Shown here: positions 2,650-30,984 of the stretch, piece after piece
Position numbering within the stretch: position 1 is the first letter of the stretch
Layout: each line of letters opens with the position of its first letter
Assembly (NCBI GenBank): GCA_023512475.1
Contig: JAILZL010000004.1
Location: 12,528-76,527 of the forward strand
Direction of reading: 5' to 3'
Source of the DNA: Syntrophobacterales bacterium
GTDB taxonomy: Bacteria > Desulfobacterota > Desulfobaccia > Desulfobaccales > 0-14-0-80-60-11
Length of the DNA: 64,000 nucleotides
Position numbers and translations under genes: made by a program
Notes under the pieces: generated by a model
What the model saw: the letters and a program-made list of their open reading frames with translations, nothing else
Database searches by the model: none
What the model was told of the DNA's origin: nothing

Positions 2650-2751
2650 GGTCCATCACCCCTTGCGCCCCGCCAGGAGGCGCCGAAGTGCCTCGAGGCC
2701 CCAGAGCCCCCAAGGCCCCCATACCTGAGATGAGGAGTCGGTCTGCCACCG

Positions 2752-4648: not shown

Positions 4649-5978
4649 CTCTTGGAACCGGCGGGGCGGCTGGCTGGGGCAAGGCCCGGCCCTTCTCCTC
4701 CTGGGGGTCATCGCGGGGGCGCTGGGGGTGGTGAGCGTCCTGGCATCGGCGGCGACCGGGGCGGCCGCCCGGGCCGATTTTGACACCTGCGTGTCCCTGG
4801 CCCTCCGGCATTCCCCTTATTTCAGCCGCAGTGCCCTGGAGATCGAAGTCCGGCGTCTGGATGAGAAGGACAGCAAGTCCGATTACCTGCCCACCATCAC
4901 GTTGAGAACCAAATTTTACCCTCACCAGCCCGAGCGGGCCGGGGCGGTCAATCAGCGGGACTACTCCCTGGATGTGGCCATCGAGTCCTACAACCCCCTG
5001 GTGGCCCACTACAGCCTGAAGATGCGCCAGCTCCTGACCCGCCTGGCGGTGCTGTCCCATCTCCGGGTCATTTCCGACGGCCTGCGGCAGATGGGGACCG
5101 CCTTTCTGGAACTGGAGGCCCTGTCCCGGCTGGCGGGAGTGCAGGAGCGCCTGCTGGAGGTGAGCCGCCGGCAGGAGACTTATGTCCGGCGGCTGGCGGA
5201 ATTGGGGGAGGCCACGCCTCTGGAGGTGCGGGTCGCCCTCCAGGAGGGCGAGGTGGTCAGGGGGGAGATGGCCCGGCTGCAGGCGGCCCAAACCCGCCTG
5301 AAGGCGCGGTTGCGGGATTTTGTGGGCCTCAAGGCGGAGGAACCCCGGGACTTCGACCTCGCCCAGGGTCGGCAGCAGGTGCTGAGGCCGGGGGAGCCCC
5401 GGGACTGGACCCGGCAGGAACCCCGCTCCCTGGAAGCCCGCATGGAGGCGATTAAAAAGGAGTTGCAGTCCTGGAACATCACCCTGGCGAAACTGCGGCT
5501 GCTGCCGGGTCTGACCGCTGCGGTGCAGACCCCGGATCCCGTGGCCGTAACCGGGGTCAGGGGCTATTTCGTCTCCGTGGGCCTCACCTGGCCGATCTTT
5601 GACGGCTTCAAGCGCCTGCGGGATATCTCCCGGCAAAAGACCCTGCTGGCCCAGGCGGAGGCGGAGGGCGCCGCCCAGGAGAGCGACTTCAGATCCCGCT
5701 GGCGGGAGGCGGTGGACAAACTCCAGGCCGCGGCCGCCACCCGGGAGCTGGCCCGCTCCCAGGTGGAGCTGGCCCGCATCAAGGAGCGCCAGGCGGAGCT
5801 CCGCTTTCAGGGCGGGGAGCCCCTCTCCCTGGCCCTGGCCGCCCAGCGCAGCCGCCTGGAGGCGGAGGCCCAGCTCATCGCCCGGGAACTGGAGCATGAC
5901 CAGGCCCTGCTGGAGGTGCGGGCCCTCGCCGGCGAGCTGGTGACCCCTTACGTGTCGGAAAAAAATTGGCTCCCCTGA
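4641..5978 (+). CDS. TolC-like outer membrane efflux protein (OMF)
   Basis: The ORF-track model starts at 4500, inside the ATPase gene. The in-frame ATG at 4641 overlaps the ATPase stop (ATGCGTGA) and precedes a hydrophobic signal (ALLLLGVIAGALGVVSVLASAA). Two-repeat, coiled-coil-rich OEP-like sequence. Confidence 0.7.
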   Translation: MRDSWNRRGGWLGQGPALLLLGVIAGALGVVSVLASAATGAAARADFDTCVSLALRHSPYFSRSALEIEVRRLDEKDSKSDYLPTITLRTKFYPHQPERAGAVNQRDYSLDVAIESYNPLVAHYSLKMRQLLTRLAVLSHLRVISDGLRQMGTAFLELEALSRLAGVQERLLEVSRRQETYVRRLAELGEATPLEVRVALQEGEVVRGEMARLQAAQTRLKARLRDFVGLKAEEPRDFDLAQGRQQVLRPGEPRDWTRQEPRSLEARMEAIKKELQSWNITLAKLRLLPGLTAAVQTPDPVAVTGVRGYFVSVGLTWPIFDGFKRLRDISRQKTLLAQAEAEGAAQESDFRSRWREAVDKLQAAAATRELARSQVELARIKERQAELRFQGGEPLSLALAAQRSRLEAEAQLIARELEHDQALLEVRALAGELVTPYVSEKNWLP

Positions 5979-6976
5979 CCACCCCTCATCTTGGCACAGG
6001 TGCGATGATGATGGCCGGCCGTGCTGACAAATCCGTCCTGACCCGGATCAGACGCCCCGATCTGCGCAGTTTTCTCACCGCCTGGCTGCTGATAACCCTG
6101 TTCCTGCCCGGGGCCTCCGTGTGGGCGGCCAGGGAGGCCGAGGTCCCGGCCCGGGAGCCGGGGGAGTTGCAGATCATCGGCAAACTCTCCTGCTCCCTGA
6201 AGCGGGTGGTTCTGCTGCCCTATGGAGCGGAAATCTCCGGGCTGGCCGTCACCCCCGGTCAGCCCGTGCAGACGGGGCAGGAACTGGCCCGGTATCGCCT
6301 CACCCCGGAGGCGGTGCAGGCCCTGCGCCGGCGGCTGATGCCCCCCCGGCTCCCGGAGCTGGAGGCCCAGTTGGCGCAGGTGGAAAAAGATTTGCGCGCC
6401 GCGGAGGCCCGCCGGCGCACCACCCAGAGCCTGGCGGCCGAGCAGCTCGCCTCCCGGCAGGGGCTGGCCGAAGCGGAGAACGCGGTGCTGTCCCTGCGCC
6501 GCAGCCGCAGCGCCCTGGCCCACGGCCTGAACGAAGAGCGGCGCCTCCTTCAGGAAGAGCGCCGGCTCCTGGCCCGGCAGCTGGGGGTGGCCCTCCCGGC
6601 CGCCGGAATCCCGAGGGAGGGCCGGCTTCTCGCCCCCATCTCCGGCCACGTCCTCTGGCTGCACCCGGACCTCCGGGTGGGGGCGGAACTGAAAGGGGGG
6701 GAGCCAGTCCTGCATCTCGGGGTCCTGGACCCCATGCTCCTGCGGGCCCGGGTGCATGAACGGGATTTTCCCTCCCTCAGCCCCGGGATGGAAGCCCGGG
6801 TGGCGGTGGAAACCCTGCCCCAGCGCACCTTCACCGCCCGGCTCTCCCGCCTCCCCTGGTCCTCTCCGGCGGGAGTGGAGGAGCCGGCCTATTTTGAGGC
6901 GGAGTTTCTCCTCCCCAACCCCGACCTGGTGCTGAAGGAAGGCCTCAAGGCCACTTTGCTCCTGAAGAGACCCTGA
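5966..6976 (+). CDS. HlyD-family periplasmic adaptor (membrane fusion protein)
   Basis: 336 aa. N-terminal TM (FLTAWLLITLFLPGASVWA), a long coiled-coil (LAQVEKDLRAAEARRRTTQSLAAEQL...), and a C-terminal beta-barrel-like region. The start could be the MMMAGR methionines near 6005. Confidence 0.7.
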   Translation: MAPLTTPHLGTGAMMMAGRADKSVLTRIRRPDLRSFLTAWLLITLFLPGASVWAAREAEVPAREPGELQIIGKLSCSLKRVVLLPYGAEISGLAVTPGQPVQTGQELARYRLTPEAVQALRRRLMPPRLPELEAQLAQVEKDLRAAEARRRTTQSLAAEQLASRQGLAEAENAVLSLRRSRSALAHGLNEERRLLQEERRLLARQLGVALPAAGIPREGRLLAPISGHVLWLHPDLRVGAELKGGEPVLHLGVLDPMLLRARVHERDFPSLSPGMEARVAVETLPQRTFTARLSRLPWSSPAGVEEPAYFEAEFLLPNPDLVLKEGLKATLLLKRP

Positions 6977-7470
6977 CCGCCGGAGGGGCCCTCCCCGGGC
7001 AGCCCTGCATAACCCGGTTCCTGGTTCCCGGGCCATCCTGCCCCGTCGGACCCGGCCTCCCGGATTCCCCGGGTTCGGAGCCCCCGCCGGGCTGAGGTAC
7101 GGGAAGATCAGGCCGCGGCGCCACCTCTTCAAGGCCTCGGCCCAGGTCTCCGGCCCAGCCCCGAGGGAACCTGACCCCAGGCGCCCCCTCCTCTCCTTCC
7201 CTGCCCCCGCCTTGCCGTTTCTGCCTTCCCCCGATGATCCAGGACTCCCGGGATGCCTGGAAACCTCAGGCTCGCGTCCCTGCCCCGGGCGGTATCAGCT
7301 GCGGCCCGGTGGCTCCGCCGACCTGCGGCCTGCACCCAGTCCGGGGCCTCCCCCTCCTTTGGCCATGGATCCTCCACTCACGGCCCACCCGGGCGCCGGC
7401 GCGGTCTTCATCCGCGCCCTGCCCGCCGCCACCCGGCTTGGGCCCCCCTGACCCTCTTCCCGGCTCCGGG

Positions 7471-7535
7471 GACTGGCCCCCTCCCCCCCGGCTTAGGTGA
7501 CTGGCCCCCTCCCCACGGCTCTGGCCCCCTGCCCC
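7471..7535 (+). repeat. C-rich direct repeats (gactggccccctcccc x2 plus a degenerate third copy)
   Basis: Perfect 16-mer at 7471-7486 and 7499-7514. Related ctggccccctgcccc at 7521-7535. They sit inside a non-coding spacer of about 650 nt that is strongly C-rich on the + strand. Confidence 0.8.
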
Positions 7536-7631
7536 TTCCCTTGCTCAGGCGGCTTGGCCACCTCTTAGGGCTTCGGCGCCCTGCCTGCCGCCCAGCCGGG
7601 CCTGCCCCCGGGACCGACGCCCCTGCCCCCC

Positions 7632-8615
7632 TCACCACCAGGAGCGGGGCAGGCGCACCCTCACCCGCATGCCGTAGACCAGCCGGTGGGGATTGGCCTG
7701 CTCTGCGGCGATTTCCGCCACCAAGGCCCGTTGCCGCCGCAGGTAGTAATCCTGATATTCCGGCGGCAGGGGTTCGGAAGCCGGATAGACCTTCTTGACC
7801 GTGCCCGGAGTGCGGCGGCCGTCGGCGAAGAGGATGGTGGTGGCCTGACCGGGATGGACCCGCTCCCGATCCTTTTCCGCCACGAAGGCTTTGACGAAGA
7901 GGTCATGCGGGTCCACCAGGGTGAGCACCGCCTGCCCCGCCTGCACCACCTCCCCGGGCTGGCGGTTGCGGCTGATGACCACGCCTTCCCGGGGGAGGCG
8001 CAGCTCCGTGACCACCCGGGCGGCGGGCTGCTGAAAGCGGTGGTACAGGTCGGCCAGAAGCTGCCGTTCCTTCTTGAGGACCGTCAGCCGCTGCTTCAGC
8101 CTCCCCACCTCGGCCTCGGCCTCCCGACACTCCAGGTCCAATTTTTTAACATCCCCGTATTTCAGGATTTTTTGCTCCAAAAGCTCCTGGGAGCGGCGCC
8201 GCTCCTGGGCCAGGGCCGCGGCCACCCCGCCCTTGAGACGTATCTCCCGGGCCGTCACCTCCGCGTCCCCGGCCAGGCGGGTCAGGGCCTCCTCAATGCG
8301 GAAGATCATCTCCGGCGGCCAGGTGTCGGCGAGGCGGCGGGTGACATCCACCCGGGCCACCACGGTGCCTGCCGGGACCGTATCCCCCACTTCCACCAGC
8401 ACCTGCTCCAGCCGGCCGGGCTCCTCGCACTGCACCAAAAACTCCCGGCCGTCCACCAGGGCCGGGAGGTCCAGGTAGAGGGCCCGGCGGCCCAGCCACT
8501 CGCCCAGGGCCAGCACCAGGCAGGCCAGCAAGGCCAGATACAGGAACTTACCCCAGGAGCGCCGGGGCGGCTCCGGCTCCCTTTTGTACAGGGGCGGCAA
8601 TGCCGGGGCTTTCAT
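7632..8615 (-). CDS. HlyD-family periplasmic adaptor, last gene of the EPS module
   Basis: 327 aa. N-terminal TM (FLYLALLACLVLALGEWL), a lipoyl-like hairpin (VEVGDTVPAGTVVARVD ... GEVVQAGQAVLTLVD) and a central coiled-coil. Confidence 0.8.
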   Translation of the reverse strand: MKAPALPPLYKREPEPPRRSWGKFLYLALLACLVLALGEWLGRRALYLDLPALVDGREFLVQCEEPGRLEQVLVEVGDTVPAGTVVARVDVTRRLADTWPPEMIFRIEEALTRLAGDAEVTAREIRLKGGVAAALAQERRRSQELLEQKILKYGDVKKLDLECREAEAEVGRLKQRLTVLKKERQLLADLYHRFQQPAARVVTELRLPREGVVISRNRQPGEVVQAGQAVLTLVDPHDLFVKAFVAEKDRERVHPGQATTILFADGRRTPGTVKKVYPASEPLPPEYQDYYLRRQRALVAEIAAEQANPHRLVYGMRVRVRLPRSWW

Positions 8616-8628
8616 GGTCTCTCCTCCC

Positions 8629-10725
8629 TCAGCGCCACTTTTTCACCTCCTCGTACTGAAACAGGGCAAAGCCGGCCGGGGGCGGCTTCAGCTGCCCCTG
8701 GAGGCGGGCCAGAAAAGCCCGGAGGGCCGCCTCGCCGGCAAAGTCCCGCACCTGCACCCCCACCCAGTAGGGTTTCCCGAGGCGGCTCAGCAGGGCGGTT
8801 TCCGCCGTCAGGGATGCCGCCAGGCGCTGCGGGTCGGTCTGTTCATAGGCCATAAACACCACCCCGTCAGCCTGGCGGAGGAGCTCCGGCCACATCTCCA
8901 CCCCTTCCTCCTCCAGCCATACCGGCACATCCAGCCACACCGGCAGTCCCGCCCCCTGGGATTGCACCAGCCTGAGGGTCTCCAGGAGGTAGCCGGCATA
9001 GGTGGCCCGCCGCTCCCGCCATTGGGGGAGCTGGTGGATCTCCAGGTCCAGATGCACGGCCCGGAAGCGGGCCTCCTCCGGCCCCCCGGCCTGGAACTCC
9101 CGCAGCCAGCGGAGATAACCGAGAAGATCGTCCCGGCGCGCCGGCAGGAGCCAGGTGGTTTCATCCAACAGGGCATGCACGGCCACCCCCTGGCGGTGCG
9201 CGGCCGCCAGGAATTCCCGCAGCCGGGGGGCAAATCCATTCCCCGGCGCGATCATGGCGCGATTCAGACAGAGATAGACCGCCGTCAGCCCCTTCTCCCG
9301 GGCCAGGGCGGGGAGCCGGCCCAGCTCTCCGGAGGTGATCAGGCGGTCGGGGTAATAGAGCCAGACGGCCAAAGGCGGGGAGGCCGCCGCAGCCGGGGAG
9401 GGCGGCGCCCCGGTCGCCGTCGGAACGGCGGTCAGGTCATCCGTGCCCACCGCCAGGAGCAGGGCGGCGTAAGCCCGTTCCCGCTCCGCCTCCCGGGCGG
9501 CCTCCTCCCGGGCCGCGGTCTCCGCCTGCACCCGGGCCGACAGCACCTCCAGGCCCGAGGCGGAGGCCAGGAGGGAAGGCTTCGCCGCCATGACCATTCT
9601 GGCCCGGAGCTGTTCTTCCGCCAGCCGGCGCTGGGTTTGGGCCACTCTCAGGCGCGCCTCCGCGGCCTGGTAGCGCTCCAGGGCCGCCGCCACCTCCCGC
9701 TCCACCTGAAGGGCCAGGGCCTCGCCCCGGGCCTCCTGGGCCGCCGCCTCGCTTTGGGAGCTCTCCCGGCGATGGCGCACCAGCTGCACCGCCTCCAAGG
9801 GGGCGGTGAACCGGGCCATGAGGAAGGCGCCGCTGCGGGTGCCGATGTCTTTGTATTGATCCACGTAGTAGCGGGCCTCCAGGTTGAGGTCGCACACCTG
9901 GGCCACCGCCCGCTCGCCGTTGATGCGGGCCTCCCGCACGCGCCAGGGCACTGCGGCGAGCTCCGGCCGGGAGTTTCGGGCCAGACGCACCAGTTCAGCG
10001 AAACCGGGCAGCCGGGGCCTTTCCGGGGTATGGGGAGCCAGCTGCACGGCGCCGGGGTCGAGGCCCAAAAGGGTGGCCAGGCGCTGGCGGCGGTTCTCCT
10101 GCACCCGGGCCGCCAGGGCCGCCTGCTCCCGGGCCTCCAGCCACTGGTGCTCCAGGGCCAGCACCTCAGCCGGGAGGACCTCCCGCTCTTTTTCCCCCCG
10201 GCGAGCCAGGCGGACGGCCTCTTCCAGGAGCGCGGCCGCGCTCCGATGCCGCCTCTTTTGCTCCTCTGCCTCCCAGTGCTCCAGATAAAGCTGCCGCACC
10301 TCGAAAAGCGCCTCCTGCAGCGCCCGCCGGCCCTCCGCCTCGGCCGCCTTGAGCTGGCAGGCGGCCCGTTCCACCTCCCCCGGCCCCGCCCCCAGGCGTT
10401 TCAGAACCGGCAGCACCACCCCGGCCTCGGCATGATGCTGGACGCTGCTGAAGCTCCGGTCCGTCTCGCTGAACACGGGATTGGTGTTGTAGTTGTAGCC
10501 GGCCTGGAATTCCGGGCCGAAGCGGTGCCGGGACTCGTCTTTCCGGCTGGCCAGGGAGCGGCACCGGAACTGTGCCTCTTTGACCAGGGGATGGCGGCTC
10601 GCCGCCAGGACCTCCAGATCCCGCAACGACAGCACCCCGGCAGGCGGGGCCGGCGCGGCCCCGGCCGGACTTGCCGACCCCCACCCGAGACTGATCGCCA
10701 CCAGCGCACACACGAGGATGCCCAT
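8629..10725 (-). CDS. TolC-like outer membrane factor fused to a C-terminal glycoside-hydrolase-like (alpha/beta-barrel-like) domain
   Basis: The ORF-track start at 10959 overlaps the upstream GT2 gene. The in-frame ATG at 10725 gives a signal peptide (MGILVCALVAISLGWGSASPAGA) 10 nt after the GT2 stop. Residues ~30-450 are OEP/TolC-like coiled-coil repeats. A Pro/Ala linker follows. The last ~240 aa show alternating strand/helix segments (AVYLCL, VAVHALL, AVHLDLE, VWLDVP, VVFMAYE, YWVGVQV). Confidence 0.65.
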   Translation of the reverse strand: MGILVCALVAISLGWGSASPAGAAPAPPAGVLSLRDLEVLAASRHPLVKEAQFRCRSLASRKDESRHRFGPEFQAGYNYNTNPVFSETDRSFSSVQHHAEAGVVLPVLKRLGAGPGEVERAACQLKAAEAEGRRALQEALFEVRQLYLEHWEAEEQKRRHRSAAALLEEAVRLARRGEKEREVLPAEVLALEHQWLEAREQAALAARVQENRRQRLATLLGLDPGAVQLAPHTPERPRLPGFAELVRLARNSRPELAAVPWRVREARINGERAVAQVCDLNLEARYYVDQYKDIGTRSGAFLMARFTAPLEAVQLVRHRRESSQSEAAAQEARGEALALQVEREVAAALERYQAAEARLRVAQTQRRLAEEQLRARMVMAAKPSLLASASGLEVLSARVQAETAAREEAAREAERERAYAALLLAVGTDDLTAVPTATGAPPSPAAAASPPLAVWLYYPDRLITSGELGRLPALAREKGLTAVYLCLNRAMIAPGNGFAPRLREFLAAAHRQGVAVHALLDETTWLLPARRDDLLGYLRWLREFQAGGPEEARFRAVHLDLEIHQLPQWRERRATYAGYLLETLRLVQSQGAGLPVWLDVPVWLEEEGVEMWPELLRQADGVVFMAYEQTDPQRLAASLTAETALLSRLGKPYWVGVQVRDFAGEAALRAFLARLQGQLKPPPAGFALFQYEEVKKWR

Positions 10726-10735
10726 GGGTCCGTCC

Positions 10736-12040
10736 TTACCAGTGAATGGTTCTTTTCCCCACCCACGGCGGGATGTAGCGCACCCGGTAGGTGTAGGTGA
10801 ACAGCCACTCCCCCACATGGGCCGCCAGCCGCACCGGACGCAGTAAAAAATTGTTGTACAGGGGGAACAAAGGCACATAGAGGAGCAGGGGGAGATCCAG
10901 GCGCCGGCGGTCGAAAAGGGCCCAGGCGGTGGCGAATTGGGCCAGGGAAAAGAGGACATAGACGAAATACACCGCCACCAGCACCACCAGGGTGGCCTCC
11001 CGAAAGAGGTAGTAGAGATAAAAGGGGTAGAGGACGAAGGCCAGGTTCTGCACCAGCTGGAAAAGGATCAGGTCAATGGCGCCCAGCAGGCTGCGGACGG
11101 AGAAGTTGGCGGCGCTCAGATCATAGAGATTGCGGTATTTCCTCAGCACCAGGCTGATGAGGGAGTTGTCCCAGCGCAGCCGCTGGCGGATGAGGCCCCG
11201 CACCGTGGCCGGAACCTCGGTGAGACAGAGGGTGCGGGGGGCGAAGGCGATGCGCCAGCCCTTTTCCCGGAGTTTGATGGTAATGTCCAGGTCTTCGCAG
11301 GTGTGCACGTCAAAGCCGCCCACCTGCGCCAGGGCCACCCGCCGCATGACCCCGAAGCCGCCCGAGACGATGAAGAGGGTGCCCCACCAGGCTTGGGCGA
11401 TGCGGCCCACCGAAATGGAGATGAGGTATTCCAGGTCCTGGAGGGCGGTGAGCACGCCGGCCTGGGCGTTTCGGGCCCGCAGGTTGCAGGACACCGCCCC
11501 CACCTGGGGATCGCAGAACTTTTTCAGGGCCTCCGCCACGGAGGTGCGGCTGAGGGAGCTGTCGGCGTCCAGGACCACCACGAACTCCCCCGAAGCAAAG
11601 TTGAGGGCCAGGTTCTGGGCCGAGGCCTTGCCGGTGCGCTGCTCATTGCGGAAGACCCGCACCCGGGGATCCTGATCCTGCCAGCGGCGGGCCACCTGTG
11701 AGGTGCCGTCGCGGGAGCCGTCGTCCACCACCAGGACCTCCAGCCAGGGATAGCTCTGGTCCAGCACGGAGGCCAGGGTCTGCCCCAGGTGGGCGGCTTC
11801 GTTGTGGGCGGGGATGATGACCGAGACCACCGCCTCCTCGGCCTGAAGCCGGGTCAGAAACGCCTCCTCCGCCGGATCCTGCCGCACCACCAGGCTCCGG
11901 AGCAGCACCGCCAGATCCGCCATCAGGTAGCGGCCGCAGTCGAAGAGCACAAAAGGCCAGAAGATGCTCCAGAACTGCCACCGGCTCAGGTGCATCAGGA
12001 AGCGCAGGGCGTCTTCCGCCAGAGAGAAAAGGAACTCCAT
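10736..12040 (-). CDS. Processive family-2 glycosyltransferase (PgaC/NodC/cellulose-synthase-like polysaccharide synthase)
   Basis: ATG at 12040 (MEFLFSLAEDAL...). The ORF-track start at 12178 adds an implausible Cys/Ser-rich leader. Motifs: VIIPAHNE, VVDDGSRDGT, LDADS (DxD), CEDLD, and QRLRW (QxxRW). TM segments flank the GT domain at both ends. Confidence 0.85.
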   Translation of the reverse strand: MEFLFSLAEDALRFLMHLSRWQFWSIFWPFVLFDCGRYLMADLAVLLRSLVVRQDPAEEAFLTRLQAEEAVVSVIIPAHNEAAHLGQTLASVLDQSYPWLEVLVVDDGSRDGTSQVARRWQDQDPRVRVFRNEQRTGKASAQNLALNFASGEFVVVLDADSSLSRTSVAEALKKFCDPQVGAVSCNLRARNAQAGVLTALQDLEYLISISVGRIAQAWWGTLFIVSGGFGVMRRVALAQVGGFDVHTCEDLDITIKLREKGWRIAFAPRTLCLTEVPATVRGLIRQRLRWDNSLISLVLRKYRNLYDLSAANFSVRSLLGAIDLILFQLVQNLAFVLYPFYLYYLFREATLVVLVAVYFVYVLFSLAQFATAWALFDRRRLDLPLLLYVPLFPLYNNFLLRPVRLAAHVGEWLFTYTYRVRYIPPWVGKRTIHW

Positions 12041-12452
12041 GTGGGGGCCCGCAGATTTTTTCCTGCATCGGCTTTTGGGACATGAACTCGAACAATTTTC
12101 GAAAAAACTTAAAGAAAATTTTGGGCACGGCCGGAATGGGGTGGAGCCGACGGCCGTTTTCTGAGGCGGGAGGGACAAAGAGGCGTGGCGGCTTTGCGGG
12201 GCCCTGCTTGGAGAGGCAAGGGAAAATCCTGCCCCAGCGCCGGCTGGGAGGACCTGCTCCGTGGCGGAGTGGTCATGCGGAGGCCGAGGCGGATGTGCCG
12301 TACAGTTCGGTCCGCCCGCCCGGGGCGGGGAGGTCAGGTGGTTTCCGACAAGCTACCGGGGAAAAACCCGGCCTTCCGGTTCCGGAAGGCGGCAGAAGCG
12401 GGTTTCCGGCCCCGGGGACGCCCCTCCTCCTGGCCCAGGAGCAGGACCGGGG

Positions 12453-13457
12453 TCAGTCGGCGGCGGGGCGCCGGCCGAAGCTGGCCACCGCGGCGGCGTC
12501 CTCCCGGAGCCAGTCCGCCACTTCCCGGACGATTAAGGACAGGCGGCGGCGGGGCGAAAAACCCAGGAGGCTCTGGATCTTGCTGATGTCCGGCACCCGA
12601 TGGTCCATATCCTCATAGCCGGCTCCGTAGACCTGCTCATAGGGGAGGAACACGATGGGGGAGGAGGAGCGGGTGATCTCTTTCACCACCTGGGCCAAAT
12701 GGGCGATACTCACCTCCTCCGTGCTGCCGATATTGAAGATCTCCCCCACCGCCCGGGGCTCGCCCGTCAGCTGGATCAGGACCTCCACCACCTCCGCCAC
12801 GTGGATGAAGCAGCGGGTCTGGCGGCCGCTGCCATGGACGGTGATGGGTTCCCCCCGAAGGGCCTGGGCCACGAACGTGGGCAGGACCATGCCGTAGCGC
12901 CCGGTCTGGCGGGGCCCCACGGTGTTGAAGAGGCGGGTGATGATGACCGGCAGGCGGCGTTCCCGGTGGTAGGCCAGGGCCAGGAATTCATCCGCCAGCT
13001 TGGAGCAGGCATAGCCCCAGCGGCTGAGATGGCTGGGGCCCAGCACCAGGTCGTCTTCCTCGGAGAACCTCTCCCGCCGGGATTTGCCATACACCTCGGA
13101 GGTGGAGGCCACCAGGATCAGGCGCTGGTAGCGGGCCGCCAGGGACAGCAGGACATGGGTGCCCAGGATGTTGGTCTCCAGGGTCTCCACCGGGTGATGC
13201 AGGATATGCCGCACCCCCACCGCGGCGGCCAGATGGAAGATGACGTCCGCTTCCCGGACGAGCTTCGCCATCAGCTCCTGATCCCGCACATCCCCGGTCA
13301 CCAAGGAGAAGCCCGGATGGGCGGCCAGACCGGCAATATTGGCATAGGAACCGGTGCTGAAATTATCCACGGCCAGCACCCGCCGGCCTTCGCGAAGCAG
13401 CCGGGCACACAGATGGGAACCGATAAAGCCGGCCCCGCCGGTCACCAGATAGACCAT
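12453..13457 (-). CDS. NAD-dependent sugar-nucleotide epimerase/dehydratase (extended SDR)
   Basis: [11 protein letters not shown] Rossmann motif and YACSKLADE (YxxxK). 334 aa. Confidence 0.85.
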
Positions 13458-13674
13458 CGGTAACCCCTTGTCGGTCGGAAGTATCTATTACACTCAAGCC
13501 GCCGGTCCTGACGGCAGGCCACCCCCCCCAAAGAATGCCTCGGCAGCACTGCCTTTGCCCTTAAATTTTGGGTCCGGCAAAGGGTAACCACCCCAGGCTT
13601 TTTCATCCCGGGACGCCGTGGCCCGGGAGGGCCGGAGGCTCCGCCCCCATGATGCCGCTCAGGGAGCTCCGGGT

Positions 13675-15111
13675 CTACGGACCGGTCAGCAGGGCGTGCT
13701 TCAGGGCCTCGGCCTCCCCGGAGCCGGGGAGCGGCAGGATCTGGCAGGAAAAATCCAGAGGAAAACTCAGGACCTCCCGGCTGCGCTGCACCAGGCGGTC
13801 CACCACGGTTTGGGCCTGAGCCGCTTCGGTTTCCGGCAGCAGGAGGAGAATCTCCCGGTGGGGGGAGACGGTCACCAGATCCGTCTGCCGGGTGTGGCTG
13901 CCGATGATCTCCTGGAGCTCCTTCACCAACAGCATTTTGCCCCCCACCCCCAGCTGGCCCTCCAGCTCCTCCAGGTTGCGGATGGCCAGGCGGATGAGGC
14001 TGGCCTGCCGGCGGTAGCGGTCGCAGCGCTTAAGCTCCAGGTCCAGGTAGGCCTGGAAGAAGGGGAAGGAGTAGATGTTCAGGAAATGATGCAGCACCTC
14101 CTCCAGGCCCAGGCGGGTGTGGAGGCCCAGGAGGGCGGCCTCGACCCCCTGCGGGGAGAGGGAAAAGCGCTGAATGGCCAGGGGGCGGGTGCGATCGGGG
14201 GGAAAGACGGCTCCGCAGCGGATGCACAGGCAGGACAGCTCCGGTTCCTGGAAGGTGCCGCCGCAGACCTCGCACAGGAGCACCTCCCCCGGCTTGGCGT
14301 AATCCACCCCGATGTGACGCAGTTCCTTGCTGCATTTGGGGCAGACATAGCGGTCCCGGCGCACGAACGCGGTCTGGGGGGCCACATGGCCGCAGCTGTA
14401 ATGCTGGATGGTGGGGGTGCGCCGCCACCGGGGGCTCTGGCAGCCGGGGCACACCTGCCGGCAGGCGAGCCGGAAATCCTCGCAGGTAGGGCACAAAGGC
14501 ACGTAATCCACCACCTCCGCCTCCAGCAGGCCTTCCCGGGCCAGACGGTTCATCTCCATCAGGCCCTGGCCCGGCGCCACCCTGAGGAGCGCATCCGCCC
14601 AGGCCAGCCGGTAGCCGTACGGGGAGGTCTCATCCCGCCCGGGCATCACCTGGGAGAGGTCCCGGGAATGGAGGAAGCGCAGCAGGGTGATCTCCCGGGC
14701 CGCCTTCTCGTCCAGCGCGGCGGAGATGGGGGGATAGCGCTCCAGGCAGGCCCGGATGGGGGTCAGGGCTTTCAGCGCCGCCCGGAACTCAAAGCCGGAG
14801 AGGGGCAGGGTGAGGAGATGATCGCACTCCGGCGGGGTCAGCCGGTGGGGGCTGCGGGGGAGCACCACAAGGACGGGGGTGAGGGCCCACCCCGGGGAGC
14901 GCCGCAGCGCCTCCAGACCGCGCCGGGCGCCGTTCTCCGCTGTGGCGGCGAAAATGAGGAGATCCACCGGAAAGGTCCGGTCCGGAACGCCTCCGGAGCT
15001 GCCCACCAGCTTCAGTTCGGCCACCCCCGAAAGTCCACCCAGGACCTCCTGGTAGAGATCGGCATTTTCCACGATGACATAAACACCATAAGAAAGCTTC
15101 TGAGATACCAT
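13675..15111 (-). CDS. Signalling protein: receiver-like N-domain + Cys-rich Zn-ribbon module (TackOD1-like?) + degenerate GGDEF domain with RxxD I-site
   Basis: 478 aa. Five CxxC pairs (C207/210, C221/224, C257/260, C280/283, C296/299). The C-terminal ~130 aa align to a GGDEF fold, but the GG(D/E)EF position reads PHREI. RQTD lies exactly 5 residues upstream of it. Confidence 0.6.
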   Translation of the reverse strand: MVSQKLSYGVYVIVENADLYQEVLGGLSGVAELKLVGSSGGVPDRTFPVDLLIFAATAENGARRGLEALRRSPGWALTPVLVVLPRSPHRLTPPECDHLLTLPLSGFEFRAALKALTPIRACLERYPPISAALDEKAAREITLLRFLHSRDLSQVMPGRDETSPYGYRLAWADALLRVAPGQGLMEMNRLAREGLLEAEVVDYVPLCPTCEDFRLACRQVCPGCQSPRWRRTPTIQHYSCGHVAPQTAFVRRDRYVCPKCSKELRHIGVDYAKPGEVLLCEVCGGTFQEPELSCLCIRCGAVFPPDRTRPLAIQRFSLSPQGVEAALLGLHTRLGLEEVLHHFLNIYSFPFFQAYLDLELKRCDRYRRQASLIRLAIRNLEELEGQLGVGGKMLLVKELQEIIGSHTRQTDLVTVSPHREILLLLPETEAAQAQTVVDRLVQRSREVLSFPLDFSCQILPLPGSGEAEALKHALLTGP

Positions 15112-15240
15112 GCCCCGACTCCTTCAGCCCCTGGGCTGCTTCTGTGTGTGCCCATCGGCCGTTTCGGAAAAAACCTTAGAAGATTTTTCACTTTCCTTGA
15201 AAAACCTGCCGTTCCCGGAGGGGGCCCCCTCCCCGGCCGG

Positions 15241-15269
15241 TTGACTCGGGGACGGGTTCAGGAAACAAT
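15241..15269 (+). promoter_or_regulatory. sigma70-like promoter placed for a leaderless HlyD/ABC-2 operon transcript
   Basis: TTGACT (15241-15246), 17-nt spacer, AACAAT (15264-15269). The ATG at 15276 begins 7 nt after the -10 element. Confidence 0.4.
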
Positions 15270-15275
15270 AGAGGC

Positions 15276-16304
15276 ATGCCTCCGGAAACCACCGCAGCTC
15301 AGGTCACCGGGAAAGTCCCGTGGCGACGGCGTATCCCCTTGGTGGTAGCCGCGGTCCTCCTGGTGGGGGGGAGCCTCTGGTGGTGGCAGCGCCACAGTCT
15401 CCCTCCCGAGGCGGCCCTGCGCCTCACCGGCCACATTGAGGCCACCGAAACCCATCTGGGCTTCAAGGTCCCCGGCCTCATCTCCGCCATCCATTTTCAG
15501 GAAGGGGAGGAAATCCGGGCCGGACAGCTGGTGGCGGAGCTGGATGACCGGGACCTGCGGCAGGAGCTGGCCGCGGCGGAGGCCCGGCTGGCCGCCGCCC
15601 AGGCCAATCTCGCCCGGCTGGAGGCGGGCTACCGCCCCCAGGAAGTCCGGGAGGCCCAGGCCGCCGTGGCCCAGGCCCGGGCGGATTACGACGACAAGGC
15701 CCGGGAATTCCGGCGCTTTCAGACCCTCTTTGCCCGCCGGGTGGTCTCGGCCCAGACCCGGGACCGGGCCGAAGCCGCCTTCCTCATGGCCCAGGAGGCC
15801 CTGAACCGGGCCAAGGAGCGCTACGATCTCCTCCGCAGCGGCTTCCGGAAGGAGGAGATTGAGCAGGCCCGGGCCGAGGCGCAGCAGGCCGAGGCGCAGC
15901 GGGATCTGGCCCGGACCAGGTGGGGTTACGCCCGCATCACCGCCCCGGTGACCGGCGTCGTCCTGGCCCGGCCGGCGGAACCCGGCCAGGTGGCCCAGGT
16001 GGGGGCCACCATTCTCACCCTGGGGGACCTGGATAACCTCTGGTTCGAAGGCTGGCTGCCGGAGACCCAGCTCGGGAAGGTGCGCTACGGCCAGAAGGCC
16101 CAGGTGACCACCGACTCCTATCCCGGCAAGGTCTACCCCGGCTGGATCTCCTACATCGCCAGCAAGGCCGAGTTCACCCCCAAGATGGTGGAAACCTTCA
16201 AGGAGCGGGTCACCCTGGTGTACCGCACCAAAATCCGGGTGGACAACCCCCACCATGAACTCAAACCCGGCATGCCCGCGGAGGCGGTGATCCTGCCGGA
16301 GTGA
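15276..16304 (+). CDS. HlyD-family efflux adaptor (YbhG-like)
   Basis: 342 aa. N-terminal TM (IPLVVAAVLLVGGSLWWW), a lipoyl hairpin, a coiled-coil (LAAAEARLAAAQANLARLEAG...) and a C-terminal beta-barrel. Confidence 0.8.
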   Translation: MPPETTAAQVTGKVPWRRRIPLVVAAVLLVGGSLWWWQRHSLPPEAALRLTGHIEATETHLGFKVPGLISAIHFQEGEEIRAGQLVAELDDRDLRQELAAAEARLAAAQANLARLEAGYRPQEVREAQAAVAQARADYDDKAREFRRFQTLFARRVVSAQTRDRAEAAFLMAQEALNRAKERYDLLRSGFRKEEIEQARAEAQQAEAQRDLARTRWGYARITAPVTGVVLARPAEPGQVAQVGATILTLGDLDNLWFEGWLPETQLGKVRYGQKAQVTTDSYPGKVYPGWISYIASKAEFTPKMVETFKERVTLVYRTKIRVDNPHHELKPGMPAEAVILPE

Positions 16305-16371
16305 GCCCGCCAGCCGGCTCTCCGGGGCTGAGCCGCAGGCCGGAGCCCGGGCGGGGCACTATCCCGGACCG

Positions 16372-17307
16372 ATGCAGCCCGTCATCGAAGTGGAAGGCCT
16401 GACCAAGGATTTCGGCCGTTTCCGGGCGGTGGACGGAGTCAGCTTCGCCGTCTCTCCGGGGGAGATCTTCGGGTTTCTGGGGCCCAACGGCGCCGGCAAA
16501 TCCACCACCATCCGCATGTTGCTGGGGTTGCTCCGGCCCAGCGGCGGCTCCGGGCGGGTGGCCGGGTATGACCTGGTCCGGGAGCAGAGCCGCATCAAGG
16601 CGAAGGTGGGGTACATGTCCCAGCGCTTCAGCCTTTATGAGGACCTCACTGCTGAGGAGAACCTGGAGTTTTTCGGCGGGGTCTACGGCCTGAGCCAGGG
16701 GCGCCTCAGGCAGCGCCTGGCGGAGGTGCTGGAGCTGGTGGGCCTGACGGACCGGCGCCGGGACCTGACCCGCACCCTGGCCCTGGGGCTGCGCCAGCGC
16801 CTGGCGTTGGCCTCCGCCATGCTGCATGAGCCGCCGCTGCTGTTTCTGGATGAGCCCACCAGCGGCGTGGATCCCGTGTCCCGGCGGACCTTCTGGGACC
16901 TGATCTACCGGCTGGCGGCCCAGGGGGTGACGGTCCTGGTCACCACCCATTACCTGGATGAGGCGGAGTTATGCGATCGGCTGGTGCTCATTTCCCAGGG
17001 CCGGCTCATCGCCCAGGGGACTCCCCGGGAGCTGAAGGCAAAAGTGACGCACCGCATCCTGGCGGTCTACCCCGACCGGCTGGCGGAGGCCTTAGCCGCC
17101 GCCCGCCAGATCCCCGAAGCCTCCGAGGTGGCGGTGTTCGGGGCCGGCCTGCACGTGGCCTTTCCCCCGGAAGTGCCGGGGGAGGCCCTCCTGACCCGGG
17201 CCCTGGCGGCCCGGGGTGTGAGCCTCCGGGAGCTCCGGCCGGTCTCCCCCACCCTGGAGGACGCCTTCATCACCCTCACCCGCCGGGCCTCCCAGGGGAC
17301 GGTATGA
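16372..17307 (+). CDS. ABC-2-type transporter ATP-binding protein
   Basis: Walker A GPNGAGKST, Q-loop MSQRF, Walker B LLFLDEPTSG. The signature region is degenerate (TLALGLRQRLAL). Confidence 0.85.
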   Translation: MQPVIEVEGLTKDFGRFRAVDGVSFAVSPGEIFGFLGPNGAGKSTTIRMLLGLLRPSGGSGRVAGYDLVREQSRIKAKVGYMSQRFSLYEDLTAEENLEFFGGVYGLSQGRLRQRLAEVLELVGLTDRRRDLTRTLALGLRQRLALASAMLHEPPLLFLDEPTSGVDPVSRRTFWDLIYRLAAQGVTVLVTTHYLDEAELCDRLVLISQGRLIAQGTPRELKAKVTHRILAVYPDRLAEALAAARQIPEASEVAVFGAGLHVAFPPEVPGEALLTRALAARGVSLRELRPVSPTLEDAFITLTRRASQGTV

Positions 17308-18437
17308 ACCTGAGGCGCACCTTCGCCGTCTTCCGCAAGGAGCTCATCCACATCCAGCGGGATCCCTCCAGCCTGGTGCAGGCCATTCTCCTGCCGGTGA
17401 TGCTCCTGTTGCTGTACGGCTATGCCCTCACCTTTGACATCACCGAGGTGCCGGTGGCGGTCTGGGACCGGGAGCAGAGCCGGGCCAGCCGCGAGCTGGT
17501 GCAGCGCTTCGGGTCCTCCCGCTACTTTACCCTGAGCCATCAGGTGACAAGCTCCGGGGAGATCGCCCGCCTGTTTGACCGGCGCCGCATCTGGCTGGCC
17601 CTGATTCTGCCCCCGGATTTCTCCCGCTACCTGAAGACCGAAGAACCTGCACCCCTGATGGCCATCGTGGACGGCACCGACGCCAACACCGCCAATGTCA
17701 TCCTGGGCTATGTCCAGGGGGTGGTGGCCGACTACAGCCGGGAGGTGGCCCAGGACCGCCTGCGGGCCCGGGGATTCACCCGACCCCTGGTGGAACTGAA
17801 AAGCGACGTGCGGGTGTGGTTCAATGAAGATCTGGAGAGCAAAAACTACATCGTTCCCGGACTGATTGTGGTCATCATGACCATGGTGGGGTCGCTCCTC
17901 ACCGCCCTCACCATCGTCCGGGAAGCGGAGCGGGGCAGCATGGAAGGCCTCATGGCCACCCCGCTGAAGAAATGGGAGCTCATCTTCGGGAAACTGGGGC
18001 CCTACTTTCTCATCGGCATGGTGGACATGTTCATTGCCCTGGGAATGGGGAAGTTTCTCTTTGAGGTGCCGTTGCGGGGCAGCGTGGCCCTCCTGATCGT
18101 GCTGTCCGCCCTGTTTCTGGTGGTGATGCTGGGGCAGGGCCTCCTCATTTCGGTCCTGTCCGTCAATCAGCTCCAGGCCTACCAGATGGCCACCCTGTTC
18201 ACCTTTCTGCCCGCCTTTCTGCTGTCGGGCTTTGTCTTTGCCATCAAGCAGATGCCGCTGCCCCTGCAGCTGGTGAGCTATCTGGTGCCCTCCCGCTATT
18301 TCGTCACCATCTCCAAGGGCATCTATCTCAAGGGCACCGGCCTTACCCTCCTGTGGGGCGAAGTGGTGCTGCTCCTGGCCTTTGCCGTCTTCTTTCTGGT
18401 GATGGCCCAACGCCGGCTGGTGAAAAAGATCCGCTGA
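17304..18437 (+). CDS. ABC-2 family permease
   Basis: The in-frame ATG at 17304 overlaps the ATPase stop (ATGA). MNLRRTFAVFRKELIHIQRDPSSL is a typical ABC-2 N-terminus. A C-terminal polytopic region follows. The ORF-track start at 16971 lies inside the ATPase gene. Confidence 0.85.
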   Translation: MNLRRTFAVFRKELIHIQRDPSSLVQAILLPVMLLLLYGYALTFDITEVPVAVWDREQSRASRELVQRFGSSRYFTLSHQVTSSGEIARLFDRRRIWLALILPPDFSRYLKTEEPAPLMAIVDGTDANTANVILGYVQGVVADYSREVAQDRLRARGFTRPLVELKSDVRVWFNEDLESKNYIVPGLIVVIMTMVGSLLTALTIVREAERGSMEGLMATPLKKWELIFGKLGPYFLIGMVDMFIALGMGKFLFEVPLRGSVALLIVLSALFLVVMLGQGLLISVLSVNQLQAYQMATLFTFLPAFLLSGFVFAIKQMPLPLQLVSYLVPSRYFVTISKGIYLKGTGLTLLWGEVVLLLAFAVFFLVMAQRRLVKKIR

Positions 18438-18470
18438 GGGCGGCCTCAAAGGGCCTTGAAGGGGGAGTGG

Positions 18471-19601: not shown

Positions 19602-19847
19602 GCACTGGCCCTTGATTTAACTTTTCGTTAACAAATTAACCCCTTTTCCGCCCTAGCCCCAGCCGCCCCCTCCTTCTGTACCTGAAATCAGGCCGGAAAA
19701 ATCATCAGAGCGTGTATTGCCCCGATTCAACTTAAGGTGTCGATACTACGGAATACCTGGACAAAAAATTAACCAAAATCCTCTGTCCCTCTGCCCTTCT
19801 CCGGAAGAGCCAGAGGCCCTTCGCCCATGCCACCCCAAGGAGGAGCT

Positions 19848-26558: not shown

Positions 26559-26566
26559 GTATTTCC

Positions 26567-30970: not shown

Positions 30971-30984
30971 GGGAGGATTCTCCC

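Follow-up and report, generated by a model that had tools for sequence, protein, structure and literature searches.

A putative c-di-GMP-responsive polysaccharide synthase module with a dedicated TolC-like channel and a tethered hydrolase-like domain in a Syntrophobacterales bacterium

The mxdABCD genes of Shewanella oneidensis are required for three-dimensional biofilm formation (PMC3691769), and MxdA, which has a degenerate GGDEF domain, binds c-di-GMP (PMC7666153, PMC3409153). In Sinorhizobium, production of the mixed-linkage β-glucan by the BgsBA system depends genetically on TolC, and a tripartite complex has been proposed; the authors of that 2026 study also allowed for an indirect role of TolC (PMC13438883). 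A precedent for cellulose export in cyanobacteria, invoked in an earlier note on the locus described here, does exist in the form of the Xcs system. According to a 2025 review, the Xcs model lacks validation, since the genes for synthase and adaptor do not lie together with that for TolC, which is outside the operon (PMC12430437).

In this work, we analysed a window of 64,000 nucleotides (the whole stretch of DNA under study) from a Syntrophobacterales bacterium, in which five genes follow each other on the minus strand at positions 7632-15111:

7632..8615, minus strand: HlyD-family periplasmic adaptor (membrane fusion protein), 327 aa, assigned by Pfam and NCBIfam
8629-10725, minus strand: fusion of a TolC-like outer-membrane factor with a glycoside hydrolase-like domain (OMF~GH fusion), 698 aa counted from MGILVC, assigned by Pfam OEP
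10736..12040, minus strand: membrane-embedded, processive-type GT2 synthase, 434 aa counted from MEFLF, assigned by Pfam
12453..13457, minus strand: extended SDR nucleotide-sugar enzyme, UDP-glucuronate-decarboxylase-like, 334 aa
13675..15111, minus strand: cytoplasmic regulator with REC-like, TackOD1 and degenerate GGDEF domains, 478 aa

Translation and Pfam matches bore out this row of genes and the domains that the earlier note had read in them. The gaps of 10-14 nt claimed for the synthase, OMF and adaptor genes measure 10 nt (GT2 to OMF) and 13 nt (OMF to HlyD), and the adaptor shares a tightly spaced unit with the synthase, the OMF gene lying between the two. The regulator and SDR genes are separated by 217 nt, and the SDR and GT2 genes by 412 nt. 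The reported absence of the usual export partners was also confirmed within the cluster, where a domain search of its genes found no homologue of BcsB/BcsC, PgaA/PgaB or Wza/Wzc. Moreover, neither the five genes nor any related module includes an ABC, RND or MFS transporter gene, which sets the unit apart from type I secretion systems and tripartite efflux pumps. Plus-strand efflux genes, converging and diverging, border the cluster. Domain matches at these E-values, and a gene set that recurs on unrelated contigs, are far from anything that chance would produce.

The regulator matches the Pfam domain TackOD1 (PF18551) at an E of 7e-45, with 153 bits against a cut-off of 32, and GGDEF weakly (E 4e-5); no transmembrane (TM) segment was predicted in it. 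Foldseek searches with its AF2 model (pLDDT 87.9) retrieved GGDEF domains at TMt 0.65-0.70, PleD and WspR being the top matches. The following parts were delimited:

14737..15090, minus strand: REC-like (flavodoxin-like) domain, residues ~8-125, with an alternating β-α pattern in the AF2 model
14161..14709, minus strand: TackOD1 domain (PF18551) with multiple CxxC zinc-ribbon motifs, residues 135-317
13732..14079, minus strand: degenerate GGDEF-like domain, residues ~345-460, with the GGDEF motif replaced by PHREI
13879..13890, minus strand: I-site RQTD (RxxD; translation checked), residues 408-411, lying five residues ahead of the lost GGDEF motif

The make-up previously given for this protein (REC-like, zinc ribbon, degenerate GGDEF) was retained, and its defining domain could be newly named as TackOD1. 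No match of Pfam Response_reg to the N-terminus was found even at E<=1, and the phospho-acceptor position, an Asp in 89 of 121 homologues, is occupied by Ala55 in the window. The N-terminal domain is a pseudo-receiver in this lineage, given that the acceptor Asp is missing. The Cys and His columns of TackOD1 (CxxC, HxxC) are invariant across the 121 homologues, as are R408 and D411 of the I-site (121/121). At the position of the GGDEF signature, which reads PHREI in the window, the family consensus is NE[ST][ILV]F. With its GGDEF fold, its invariant RxxD and the loss of the active-site motif, the regulator bears out the proposal of a putative c-di-GMP receptor; binding would occur through the I-site.

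The GT2 protein (Pfam Glycos_transf_2, E 3.7e-37) has the D/DxD/TED/QxxRW signature of processive membrane GT2 synthases, in the form of DDGS106, DAD158, TCED247-250 and QRLRW286, and hydrophobic segments on both sides of the catalytic domain (~17-50, 318-342, 349-367 and 380-400). Its alignment with BcsA covers residues 45-387, membrane segments included. Because of these motifs, this alignment and a best NCBIfam match to PgaC/IcaA (PgaC_IcaA), we place it, as the earlier note did, in the class of processive membrane synthases; its product would be a polymer. The PgaC/IcaA match reaches 195 bits, below the cut-off of 422, and no partners of that system occur in the cluster, which is thus not a PgaABCD system for PNAG. 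The second-best NCBIfam match, NodC, is also below its cut-off with 121 bits, and CelA/BcsA reach 45-69 bits where the cut-offs stand at 699-992. A PilZ domain, and with it a c-di-GMP site of the BcsA kind, was not found in the GT2. The best PDB match is 6yv7, a minimal archaeal membrane GT2, and Chitin_synth_2 is matched by the window GT2 and by some relatives. In three archaeal lineages (L005, L006 and L008), relatives of this GT2 adjoin TackOD1 proteins.

The OMF~GH fusion begins with a signal-peptide-like N-terminus and matches Pfam OEP in two stretches (E 6e-19). Its parts are:

9394..10725, minus strand: TolC-like OMF part, residues 1 to ~444, with the signal peptide and, at its end, a Pro/Ala-rich linker
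8629..9393, minus strand: C-terminal (β/α)8 GH-like domain from the AF2 model, residues ~445-698, predicted to be periplasmic
9040..9054, minus strand: HLDLE motif at the end of β4 (translation checked), with a candidate catalytic Asp/Glu pair

The C-terminal domain, modelled by AF2 as a (β/α)8 barrel with a pLDDT of 90.8, resembles GH18, GH164, GH20, Cwp19 and TM1410 structures in Foldseek searches (TM 0.5-0.63), the top match being the peptidoglycan hydrolase Cwp19. The window domain alone gave no Pfam match and no PDB sequence match, and its best structural TM is only ~0.6. The family profile matches PDB 10yv_A at an E of 6e-39 and, weakly (E 0.03), GH18 chitotriosidases, with HLDLE and MAY aligned to GH18 motifs. 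Within HLDLE, which aligns to GH18 DxDxE, residues H558, D560 and E562 are invariant in the A7 alignment. Among 67 long fusion homologues, 57 contain OEP, six match Pfam GH18 and three carry SPOR domains; hhalign ties the divergent order-B N-termini to the OMF part with a probability of 96%. Standalone homologues of the C-terminal domain sit among carbohydrate-catabolic genes (sulfatase, rhamnosidase, dockerin/CBM). On the evidence of the model, the fusion partner that the earlier note left unnamed is a GH18-like TIM barrel with HxDxE and MAY motifs. The barrel belongs to a GH-like family that is sizeable and uncharacterised, PDB 10yv being its one solved member. The adaptor (HlyD_3, E 2.6e-17; HlyD_D23, E 2.8e-12) has a single N-terminal TM segment at residues 24-42, and its gene always lies beside the OMF fusion gene in related loci.

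The SDR (Pfam Epimerase/GDP_Man_Dehyd, E ~1e-55; motifs STSEVYG and YACSK) had been taken for an epimerase. This label has to be changed, as the protein is UXS/ArnA-like and closest to UDP-glucuronate decarboxylases; human UXS1 heads its PDB matches (E 2.8e-53), ahead of ArnA and PelX. Outside the lineage of the window, L001 and L003, the SDR is absent from the module, and on these gene contents it is a lineage-specific accessory gene that does not belong to the conserved core. Two features occupy the spacer between the SDR and GT2 genes:

12361..12390, minus strand: terminator-like hairpin with a T-tail, downstream of the SDR gene, eight pairs of which six are G-C
12041..12130, minus strand: AT-rich element (~90 nt) immediately preceding the GT2 start and conserved in the alignment with L001

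The hairpin is not present in the homologous L001 spacer, and the AT-rich element, which had no Rfam match, may act as promoter or operator for the unit of GT2, OMF and HlyD. The 412-nt gap, the hairpin and the conserved AT-rich element make a single five-gene transcript doubtful, and the last three genes probably have their own promoter.

Regulator, GT2, OMF~GH fusion and HlyD adaptor make up a module that is widespread and deeply diverged. It was found in about 26 of the 41 metagenome loci retrieved with the OMF fusion as query, as well as in cultured or named genomes (Guyparkeria, Thiodiazotropha, Desulfobacter and Desulfolithobacter), and module genes overlap in relatives. Two gene orders, T-G-O-H and O-H-T-G, were observed, and the four genes stay linked down to 20-30% identity, a result in favour of the co-conservation on which the earlier note had let its reading stand or fall. 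The partners lie beside nearly every long fusion gene with readable flanks. The exceptions are L098, a short contig with the regulator and no GT2 match, and L117, L120 and L121, each with one partner under the detection threshold. A divergent copy of all five genes (43-59% identity) is present in L003, while in L002 the GT2 was deleted and the remaining genes were kept. Plesiomonas, Photobacterium and Phyllobacterium have a three-gene form without the OMF. The neighbouring pumps keep their synteny in L001 and L002; L003 and every distant module locus lack them.

The interpretation of the earlier note was supported, each of its points and each of its refuting conditions examined here turning out in its favour. 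Based on these data, we consider it probable that the locus encodes a c-di-GMP-responsive, synthase-dependent exopolysaccharide system, whose envelope part is a membrane fusion protein with a dedicated TolC-like channel instead of a porin of the BcsC/PgaA/AlgE type. In such a system, c-di-GMP would bind the RxxD I-site that the cytoplasmic TackOD1 protein carries in its degenerate GGDEF domain, and the zinc-ribbon TackOD1 domain, to judge from gene neighbourhood an ancient partner of this GT2 clade, would contact and activate the synthase. The GT2 would then polymerise a β-linked glycan, probably containing N-acetylhexosamine, and translocate it through its own membrane helices. The adaptor, anchored by its one TM helix, may couple the synthase to the trimeric OMF, a role suggested by the lack of any other inner-membrane transporter and by the strict co-occurrence of these genes, and we infer that the polymer leaves the cell through the OMF. 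Tethered by the Pro/Ala linker to the periplasmic C-terminus of the OMF, the GH18-like barrel might trim the polymer or clear the periplasm of it, as BcsZ, PelA, PgaB, AlgL and XcsC do in other systems. The UXS-like SDR could supply a modified sugar nucleotide in this lineage only. Some points count against this mechanism, namely the loss of the GT2 in L002, the three-gene variants without an OMF, the PgaC and NodC scores under their cut-offs, and the window barrel's lack of Pfam and PDB sequence matches together with its modest structural TM. Additionally, a hydrolase placed outside a sealed adaptor/OMF conduit would miss the exported chain.

Alternatively, the barrel may not act on the polymer at all; it could bind or remodel peptidoglycan so as to open the sacculus locally or to fix the channel in it. 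The Cwp19 match and the SPOR domains of three of the 67 long homologues fit this idea, and GH18-like chemistry suits β-1,4-linked N-acetyl sugars, the peptidoglycan backbone included. Nevertheless, TolC-based machines do not normally depend on a peptidoglycan hydrolase of their own, the standalone homologues keep company with sulfatase, rhamnosidase and dockerin/CBM genes, and the barrel is strictly accompanied by a GT2 from the clade of GlcNAc-polymer synthases, so that we find this explanation unlikely. We are somewhat more sceptical of a GT2 making short oligosaccharides (NodC-like chito-oligomers) or a glycolipid, to be expelled by adaptor and OMF as a signal or surface molecule. The small size of the enzyme (434 aa), NodC as its second NCBIfam match, 6yv7 as its best PDB match and the Chitin_synth_2 matches in the window and relatives would agree with a short product. 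However, the module has no separate inner-membrane exporter, unlike NodIJ, and QRLRW with a predicted C-terminal TM bundle fits channel-forming synthases, as does the alignment with BcsA over residues 45-387. A putative c-di-GMP receptor and a tethered hydrolase are hallmarks of biofilm polymers, and the mxd genes are needed for biofilm architecture in Shewanella (PMC3691769).

The regulator might also be an active diguanylate cyclase, as its homologues are often labelled in databases, or a DNA-binding protein, since the PriA-like arrangement of the zinc ribbon noted by Galperin could bind nucleic acid (PMC5847659). Cyclase activity is made unlikely by the loss of the GG(D/E)EF signature (PHREI; NE[ST][ILV]F in the family), against an invariant RxxD; MxdA, with its degenerate GGDEF domain, binds c-di-GMP (PMC7666153, PMC3409153), and the strict adjacency to the GT2, archaea included, points to a partnership at the protein level. 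Either function in place of a synthase-acting receptor is therefore very unlikely. Finally, adaptor and OMF could serve an ordinary pump, for tripartite efflux or type I secretion, with its inner-membrane transporter encoded elsewhere, the GT2 being adjacent by accident. A candidate partner is at hand in the divergent ABC-2 system at 15276-19601 (HlyD/ABC-2), which has no OMF of its own; three systems containing a membrane fusion protein lie side by side in the window, and the synteny is shared by L001 and L002. Yet these pumps are missing from L003 and the distant loci, where the four module genes remain together in two orders, no copy of the module contains a transporter gene, and a sugar-hydrolase domain fused to the OMF would make no sense in a drug or protein pump. 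We thus regard an ordinary pump as highly improbable and retain the exopolysaccharide system as our preferred reading.

Direct export of polysaccharides by TolC-type channels is debated, and to our knowledge no system has yielded a direct demonstration that a polysaccharide passes through a TolC tunnel. In the present module, the genes for synthase, channel and adaptor adjoin one another with gaps of 10-13 nt, and distant lineages have inherited them together; at the genomic level, we take the recurring gene set as strong evidence for the ability of TolC-type channels to export biofilm polysaccharides. With three genes contiguous and co-inherited and a hydrolase domain on the channel itself, the question becomes testable in a compact four-gene cassette, which is present in cultured strains such as Guyparkeria hydrothermalis. 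The gene neighbourhoods also offer a concrete hypothesis for TackOD1, that of a partner and regulator of the GT2 synthase. A wider reading is possible, and we hold it only tentatively: the window may belong to an unrecognised and phylogenetically broad class of synthase-dependent exopolysaccharide machines, of which Mxd would be the sole, partly understood studied member. In this class, TackOD1 would be a synthase-controlling output domain from TACK archaea to bacteria, paired with REC or standalone in the former and fused to an I-site c-di-GMP sensor in the latter, and the β-barrel/TPR porin would have given way to a TolC-like channel of the system's own, with a GH18-like hydrolase tethered to it. 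If so, a function would be given to TackOD1, a domain whose function has been called "obscure", and the module would be the first operon-encoded case of TolC-type tunnels as direct polysaccharide exporters.

The known systems share different parts with the window. PelD, in which binding of c-di-GMP to the RxxD I-site of a degenerate GGDEF domain turns polysaccharide production on, resembles the window regulator in this domain and site, but it is a membrane GAF-GGDEF protein whereas the regulator is soluble, with REC-like and TackOD1 domains; the export parts PelB and PelC are unrelated to those of the window. PgaABCD/IcaADBC comes closest in its GT2 (PgaC/IcaA) and has c-di-GMP-dependent activation and a periplasmic TIM-barrel hydrolase that acts on the polymer (the PgaB C-terminal domain), both of which are putative in the window. 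Unlike it, our cluster lacks PgaD, a CE4-GH153 PgaB and the β-barrel/TPR porin PgaA, and its GT2 stays at 195 bits where 422 are required.

At the level of gene content, the window agrees with systems of the Bgs and Xcs types in an HlyD-like adaptor encoded beside the synthase and in a TolC-family channel. BgsBA has in common with the window a membrane GT2, an HlyD-like adaptor, a TolC-type channel and c-di-GMP control, the latter presumed in the window (PMC13438883). In contrast to the window, the BcsA-like glucan synthase BgsA is itself the protein that binds c-di-GMP, the channel is a housekeeping TolC encoded elsewhere, and neither a hydrolase fusion nor a TackOD1 receptor is present. The cyanobacterial XcsA-XcsB-TolC system with XcsC likewise combines a GT2, an HlyD-like adaptor, a TolC-like channel and a glycoside hydrolase (PMC12430437), but XcsA is a PilZ-bearing cellulose synthase, and the hydrolase, an endoglucanase from another family, is a protein by itself.

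Mxd, which the earlier note omitted, was matched by description and domain content. It differs from the window in gene order, in the lack of the SDR and in MxdD being annotated as "hypothetical", and neither a TackOD1 domain in MxdA nor a TolC-like/GH fusion is described in the Mxd literature that we examined. It shares with the window a degenerate-GGDEF protein (MxdA), a GT2 in the membrane (MxdB) and an adaptor resembling those of efflux pumps (MxdC), and family members in Plesiomonas and Photobacterium have the order regulator-GT2-HlyD exactly as in mxdABC. Judged by these descriptions, Shewanella MxdABCD is a closer studied analogue of the locus than the cyanobacterial system.

The minus strand between 7632 and 15111 carries five genes in a row, as the earlier note had claimed. 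In a domain HMM scan all five proteins matched the expected families (HlyD_3, OEP, GT2, SDR and TackOD1/GGDEF). These genes and the two exporters that flank them are as follows.

2734-6976, plus strand: MacB-type pump (permease, ATPase, its own outer-membrane factor, HlyD adaptor), converging on the module
7632-8615, minus strand: HlyD-family adaptor, 327 aa; HlyD_3, E 2.6e-17; single N-terminal TM segment
8629-10725, minus strand: outer-membrane factor (OMF) fusion, 698 aa; OEP in two stretches, E 6e-19; signal-peptide-like N-terminus
10736-12040, minus strand: GT2, 434 aa; E 3.7e-37; motifs DDGS, DAD, TCED and QRLRW; hydrophobic segments flanking the catalytic domain
12453-13457, minus strand: extended SDR, 334 aa; Epimerase/GDP_Man_Dehyd, E ~1e-55
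13675-15111, minus strand: regulator, 478 aa; TackOD1, E 7e-45; weak GGDEF
15276-19601, plus strand: HlyD/ABC-2 exporter without an OMF gene, diverging from the module

The short gaps, previously put at 10-14 nt, measure 10 nt between GT2 and the OMF fusion and 13 nt between the fusion and the adaptor, in a window with a G+C content of ~69%. We found no homologues of BcsB/C, PgaA/B/D or Wza/Wzc in the cluster, in agreement with the earlier note. Long plus-strand shadow ORFs (e.g., 7686-8855, 8584-10800 and 13618-15348) were rejected for want of domain support, and longer versions of the GT2 and OMF ORFs with upstream TTG or ATG starts were set aside because the called homologues begin at MEFLF and MGILV.

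The two flanking exporters give the cluster sharp edges. Their synteny with the module is kept only in the closest related loci, L001 and L002, and a linkage of the module to the MacB-like and ABC-2 pumps was rejected on this ground. Between the converging adaptor genes lies a gene-free spacer of 655 nt (6977-7631), C-rich on the plus strand, which showed no tRNA and, in the part scanned (from 7000), no Rfam match. Beside the ABC-2 exporter, positions 19827-21203 encode a multihaem c-type cytochrome with MtrC/MtrF-like and cytochrome c7 domains, and a homologous gene occurs in L001. On the minus strand at 24114-32316 lies a second glycan-related cluster. It encodes a CE4 polysaccharide deacetylase (Pfam E 3e-17; 28122-29228), two soluble GT2s and three membrane proteins, of which one is polytopic and 818 aa long and another is flippase-like. 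Between 24 and 36 kb the AT skew is strongly positive (0.23-0.35).

GT2, the OMF fusion and the adaptor probably form a transcription unit of their own, and a single transcript of all five genes is therefore unlikely. The spacer between the SDR and GT2 genes is 412 nt long and contains a terminator-like hairpin at 12371-12390. Immediately upstream of the GT2 start, a ~90-nt AT-rich stretch (12041-12130; AAAATTTTCTTTAAGTTTTTTCGAAAATTG...) conserved with L001 is a candidate promoter or operator. Neither a c-di-GMP riboswitch nor any other RNA gave an Rfam match at E<=1 in the regulator-SDR (217 nt) and SDR-GT2 (412 nt) spacers.

The nearest NCBIfam models of GT2 are PgaC/IcaA (195 bits) and NodC (121 bits), both scoring under the equivalog cut-offs; the protein also matches Chitin_synth_2, and its alignment to BcsA spans residues 45-387. 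Its sequence makes it a probable, if small, channel-forming synthase. An exact-sequence look-up with the window GT2 gave no matches. The nearest named relatives make GlcNAc polymers which, together with the GH18-like hydrolase described below, suggests that the product may be an N-acetylhexosamine polymer. The SDR had been called an epimerase, but this is not the best reading, since its best match is human UDP-glucuronate decarboxylase (E 2.8e-53), with the PelX epimerase lower (E ~1e-38), and since its STSEVYG and YACSK motifs are those of the decarboxylases. Module copies outside the window lineage have no SDR. In Nocardiopsis species and an Omnitrophica MAG (loci L033, L063, L077-L079 and L082), homologues of the UXS-like SDR (~50% identity) sit 2-3 kb away from distant homologues of GT2, a hint that SDR and GT2 genes have paired repeatedly beyond the module too.

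The C-terminal domain of the OMF fusion follows a Pro/Ala-rich linker and covers residues ~445-698. Used alone as a sequence query it had no match in Pfam or PDB, and only a structure model and a family profile gave information. AlphaFold2 returned a confident (β/α)8 barrel (pLDDT 90.8, 11-sequence alignment), whose Foldseek neighbours were mainly glycoside hydrolases and a few unrelated TIM-barrel enzymes, the list including Cwp19, GH164, GH18 chitinase, GH20, TM1410/GH191 and dispersin. TM-scores reached just 0.5-0.63, so none of these neighbours is closely related. An exhaustive HMMER search collected 742 cluster representatives at E<=1e-3, among them standalone proteins of ~290 aa and proteins of ~700 aa; OEP was present in 57 of the 67 long homologues and a weak Pfam GH18 match in six of them. 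Family motifs are HxDxE ending β4, DxP on β5 and MAY on β6. The best PDB match of the family profile was 10yv_A ("Putative GH97 from Cellulomonas fimi"; E 6e-39), followed by GH18 chitotriosidases (E 0.03), in whose alignments FAGIHLDIE stands opposite FDGLDLDWE and MAY opposite MAYD. Sulfatase, GH106 and dockerin/CBM genes neighbour the standalone homologues. From these data we assign to the OMF a glycoside-hydrolase-like domain, probably a distant relative of GH18. TolC-type proteins have their C-terminus in the periplasm, and the domain is thus predicted to be periplasmic.

The regulator model (pLDDT 87.9, AF2, 121-sequence alignment) shows a flavodoxin/REC-like N-terminus followed by a TackOD1 zinc-ribbon and a GGDEF-like C-terminus. 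This last domain superposes on GGDEF domains with TMt 0.65-0.70 and rmsd 3.2-3.6 Å, PleD and WspR ranking at the top. In place of the GGDEF signature the window protein has PHREI and the family NE[ST][ILV]F, while the RxxD I-site, the putative c-di-GMP site five residues upstream of the signature position, is invariant in all 121 homologues. The I-site receptor PelD presents the same pattern of a lost signature and a retained RxxD. Pfam REC did not match the regulator. The phospho-acceptor column holds Ala in the window protein (A55), Ala or Gly in its lineage and Asp in 89 of the 121 homologues. CheY3-P has been reported to bind MxdA of Shewanella (PMC7666153), which makes the REC-like domain worth study. 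The one paper that describes TackOD1 calls it an output domain of archaea, with a function that "remains obscure" (PMC5847659).

A survey of gene order in other genomes revealed that regulator, GT2, OMF fusion and adaptor recur together. The full fusion protein retrieved just eight close homologues, all with identical synteny, and a search with its C-terminal domain reached L003, a divergent copy (43-59% identical) with five genes in the order SDR-regulator-GT2-fusion-adaptor. The fusion gene of L003 (9201-10510) is broken by a frameshift at residue 256 and called as proteins of 237 and 439 aa. With a diverse fusion alignment as query, a metagenome scan yielded 41 loci, ~26 of them with the module and the rest standalone barrels. 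Two orders were found, regulator-GT2-fusion-adaptor and fusion-adaptor-regulator-GT2, and for the second of these hhalign relates the divergent fusion N-termini to OMF (prob 96%). Where the flanks of a long fusion gene could be read, the partners were nearly always present, the exceptions being L098 (a short contig with no GT2 match) and L117, L120 and L121 (one partner under the detection threshold). In L002 (4334-4917; 60-65% identical), one deletion fuses SDR residue ~195 to OMF residue 88, removing GT2 and leaving the regulator, a truncated fusion gene and the adaptor; the locus reflects module decay or an assembly error.

The regulator profile matched more than 256 clusters, and the four-gene operon was found in Guyparkeria hydrothermalis, Desulfolithobacter, Thiodiazotropha and Desulfobacter. 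A three-gene form that lacks the fusion, regulator-GT2-HlyD, occurs on replicons of Plesiomonas, Photobacterium and Phyllobacterium from the plasmid collection. The module is widespread, and the sources annotate its proteins solely as hypothetical or with generic names. A GTDB scan with the GT2 alignment used two peptide patterns overly specific to the window subfamily; it returned only distant GT2s, missed the bacterial genomes bearing the module and was useful only for archaeal TackOD1 adjacency. Its top GT2 relatives were archaeal, and in three of the four best a TackOD1 protein adjoins GT2 (L005 11177-12145, L006 8767-9777 and L008 14-943; Terraquivivens, Brockarchaeota and Thermoproteota). 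We therefore read GT2 and TackOD1 as an ancient pair. The archaeal TackOD1 proteins have no GGDEF-like domain, their ~130-aa C-terminal domains being unrelated to it; the adaptor, often the OMF fusion, and the putative c-di-GMP-sensing domain would be additions by diderm bacteria.

In the mechanism we propose, c-di-GMP would bind the I-site of the regulator, and the TackOD1 protein would then activate GT2, presumably by direct contact. GT2 would make a glycan polymer and pass it through the inner membrane, the adaptor would link GT2 to an OMF trimer serving as the outer route, and the tethered hydrolase would trim the polymer or remove it from the periplasm. The defining features of Pga, Bcs and Pel systems, and those of an efflux pump, were looked for and found wanting in the module, and these assignments were rejected. 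The interpretation of the earlier note, export of a synthase product by way of an adaptor and a TolC-type channel, holds on the domain identities, motifs, folds and co-occurrence established here, with ligand binding, contacts between the proteins, the passage through the OMF and the chemistry of the polymer as predicted elements.

Such a route is of a known kind. Proposed models of two other systems combine GT2, a HlyD-like adaptor and TolC in the same way. For BgsBA there is a genetic requirement for tolC, possibly through an indirect role (PMC13438883). In cyanobacteria the parts are XcsAB and TolC, along with the endoglucanase XcsC, and a 2025 review regards this model as unvalidated since its genes are not encoded together (PMC12430437). 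Shewanella MxdABCD comprises a degenerate GGDEF protein that binds c-di-GMP (MxdA), a membrane GT2 (MxdB), an efflux-pump-like MxdC and MxdD of unknown role (PMC3691769, PMC7666153, PMC3409153). No domain detail on MxdA or MxdD was found in the literature searched, the original 2006 and 2011 mxd reports being outside our reach, and no Shewanella-record names appear among the 120 regulator homologues listed. The match of these parts to the module is one of published description, and membership of the Mxd family is a strong lead drawn from this analogy. Compared with these systems, the module is new in having an OMF of its own, joined to a GH18-like hydrolase, and a putative receptor that combines TackOD1 with an I-site.
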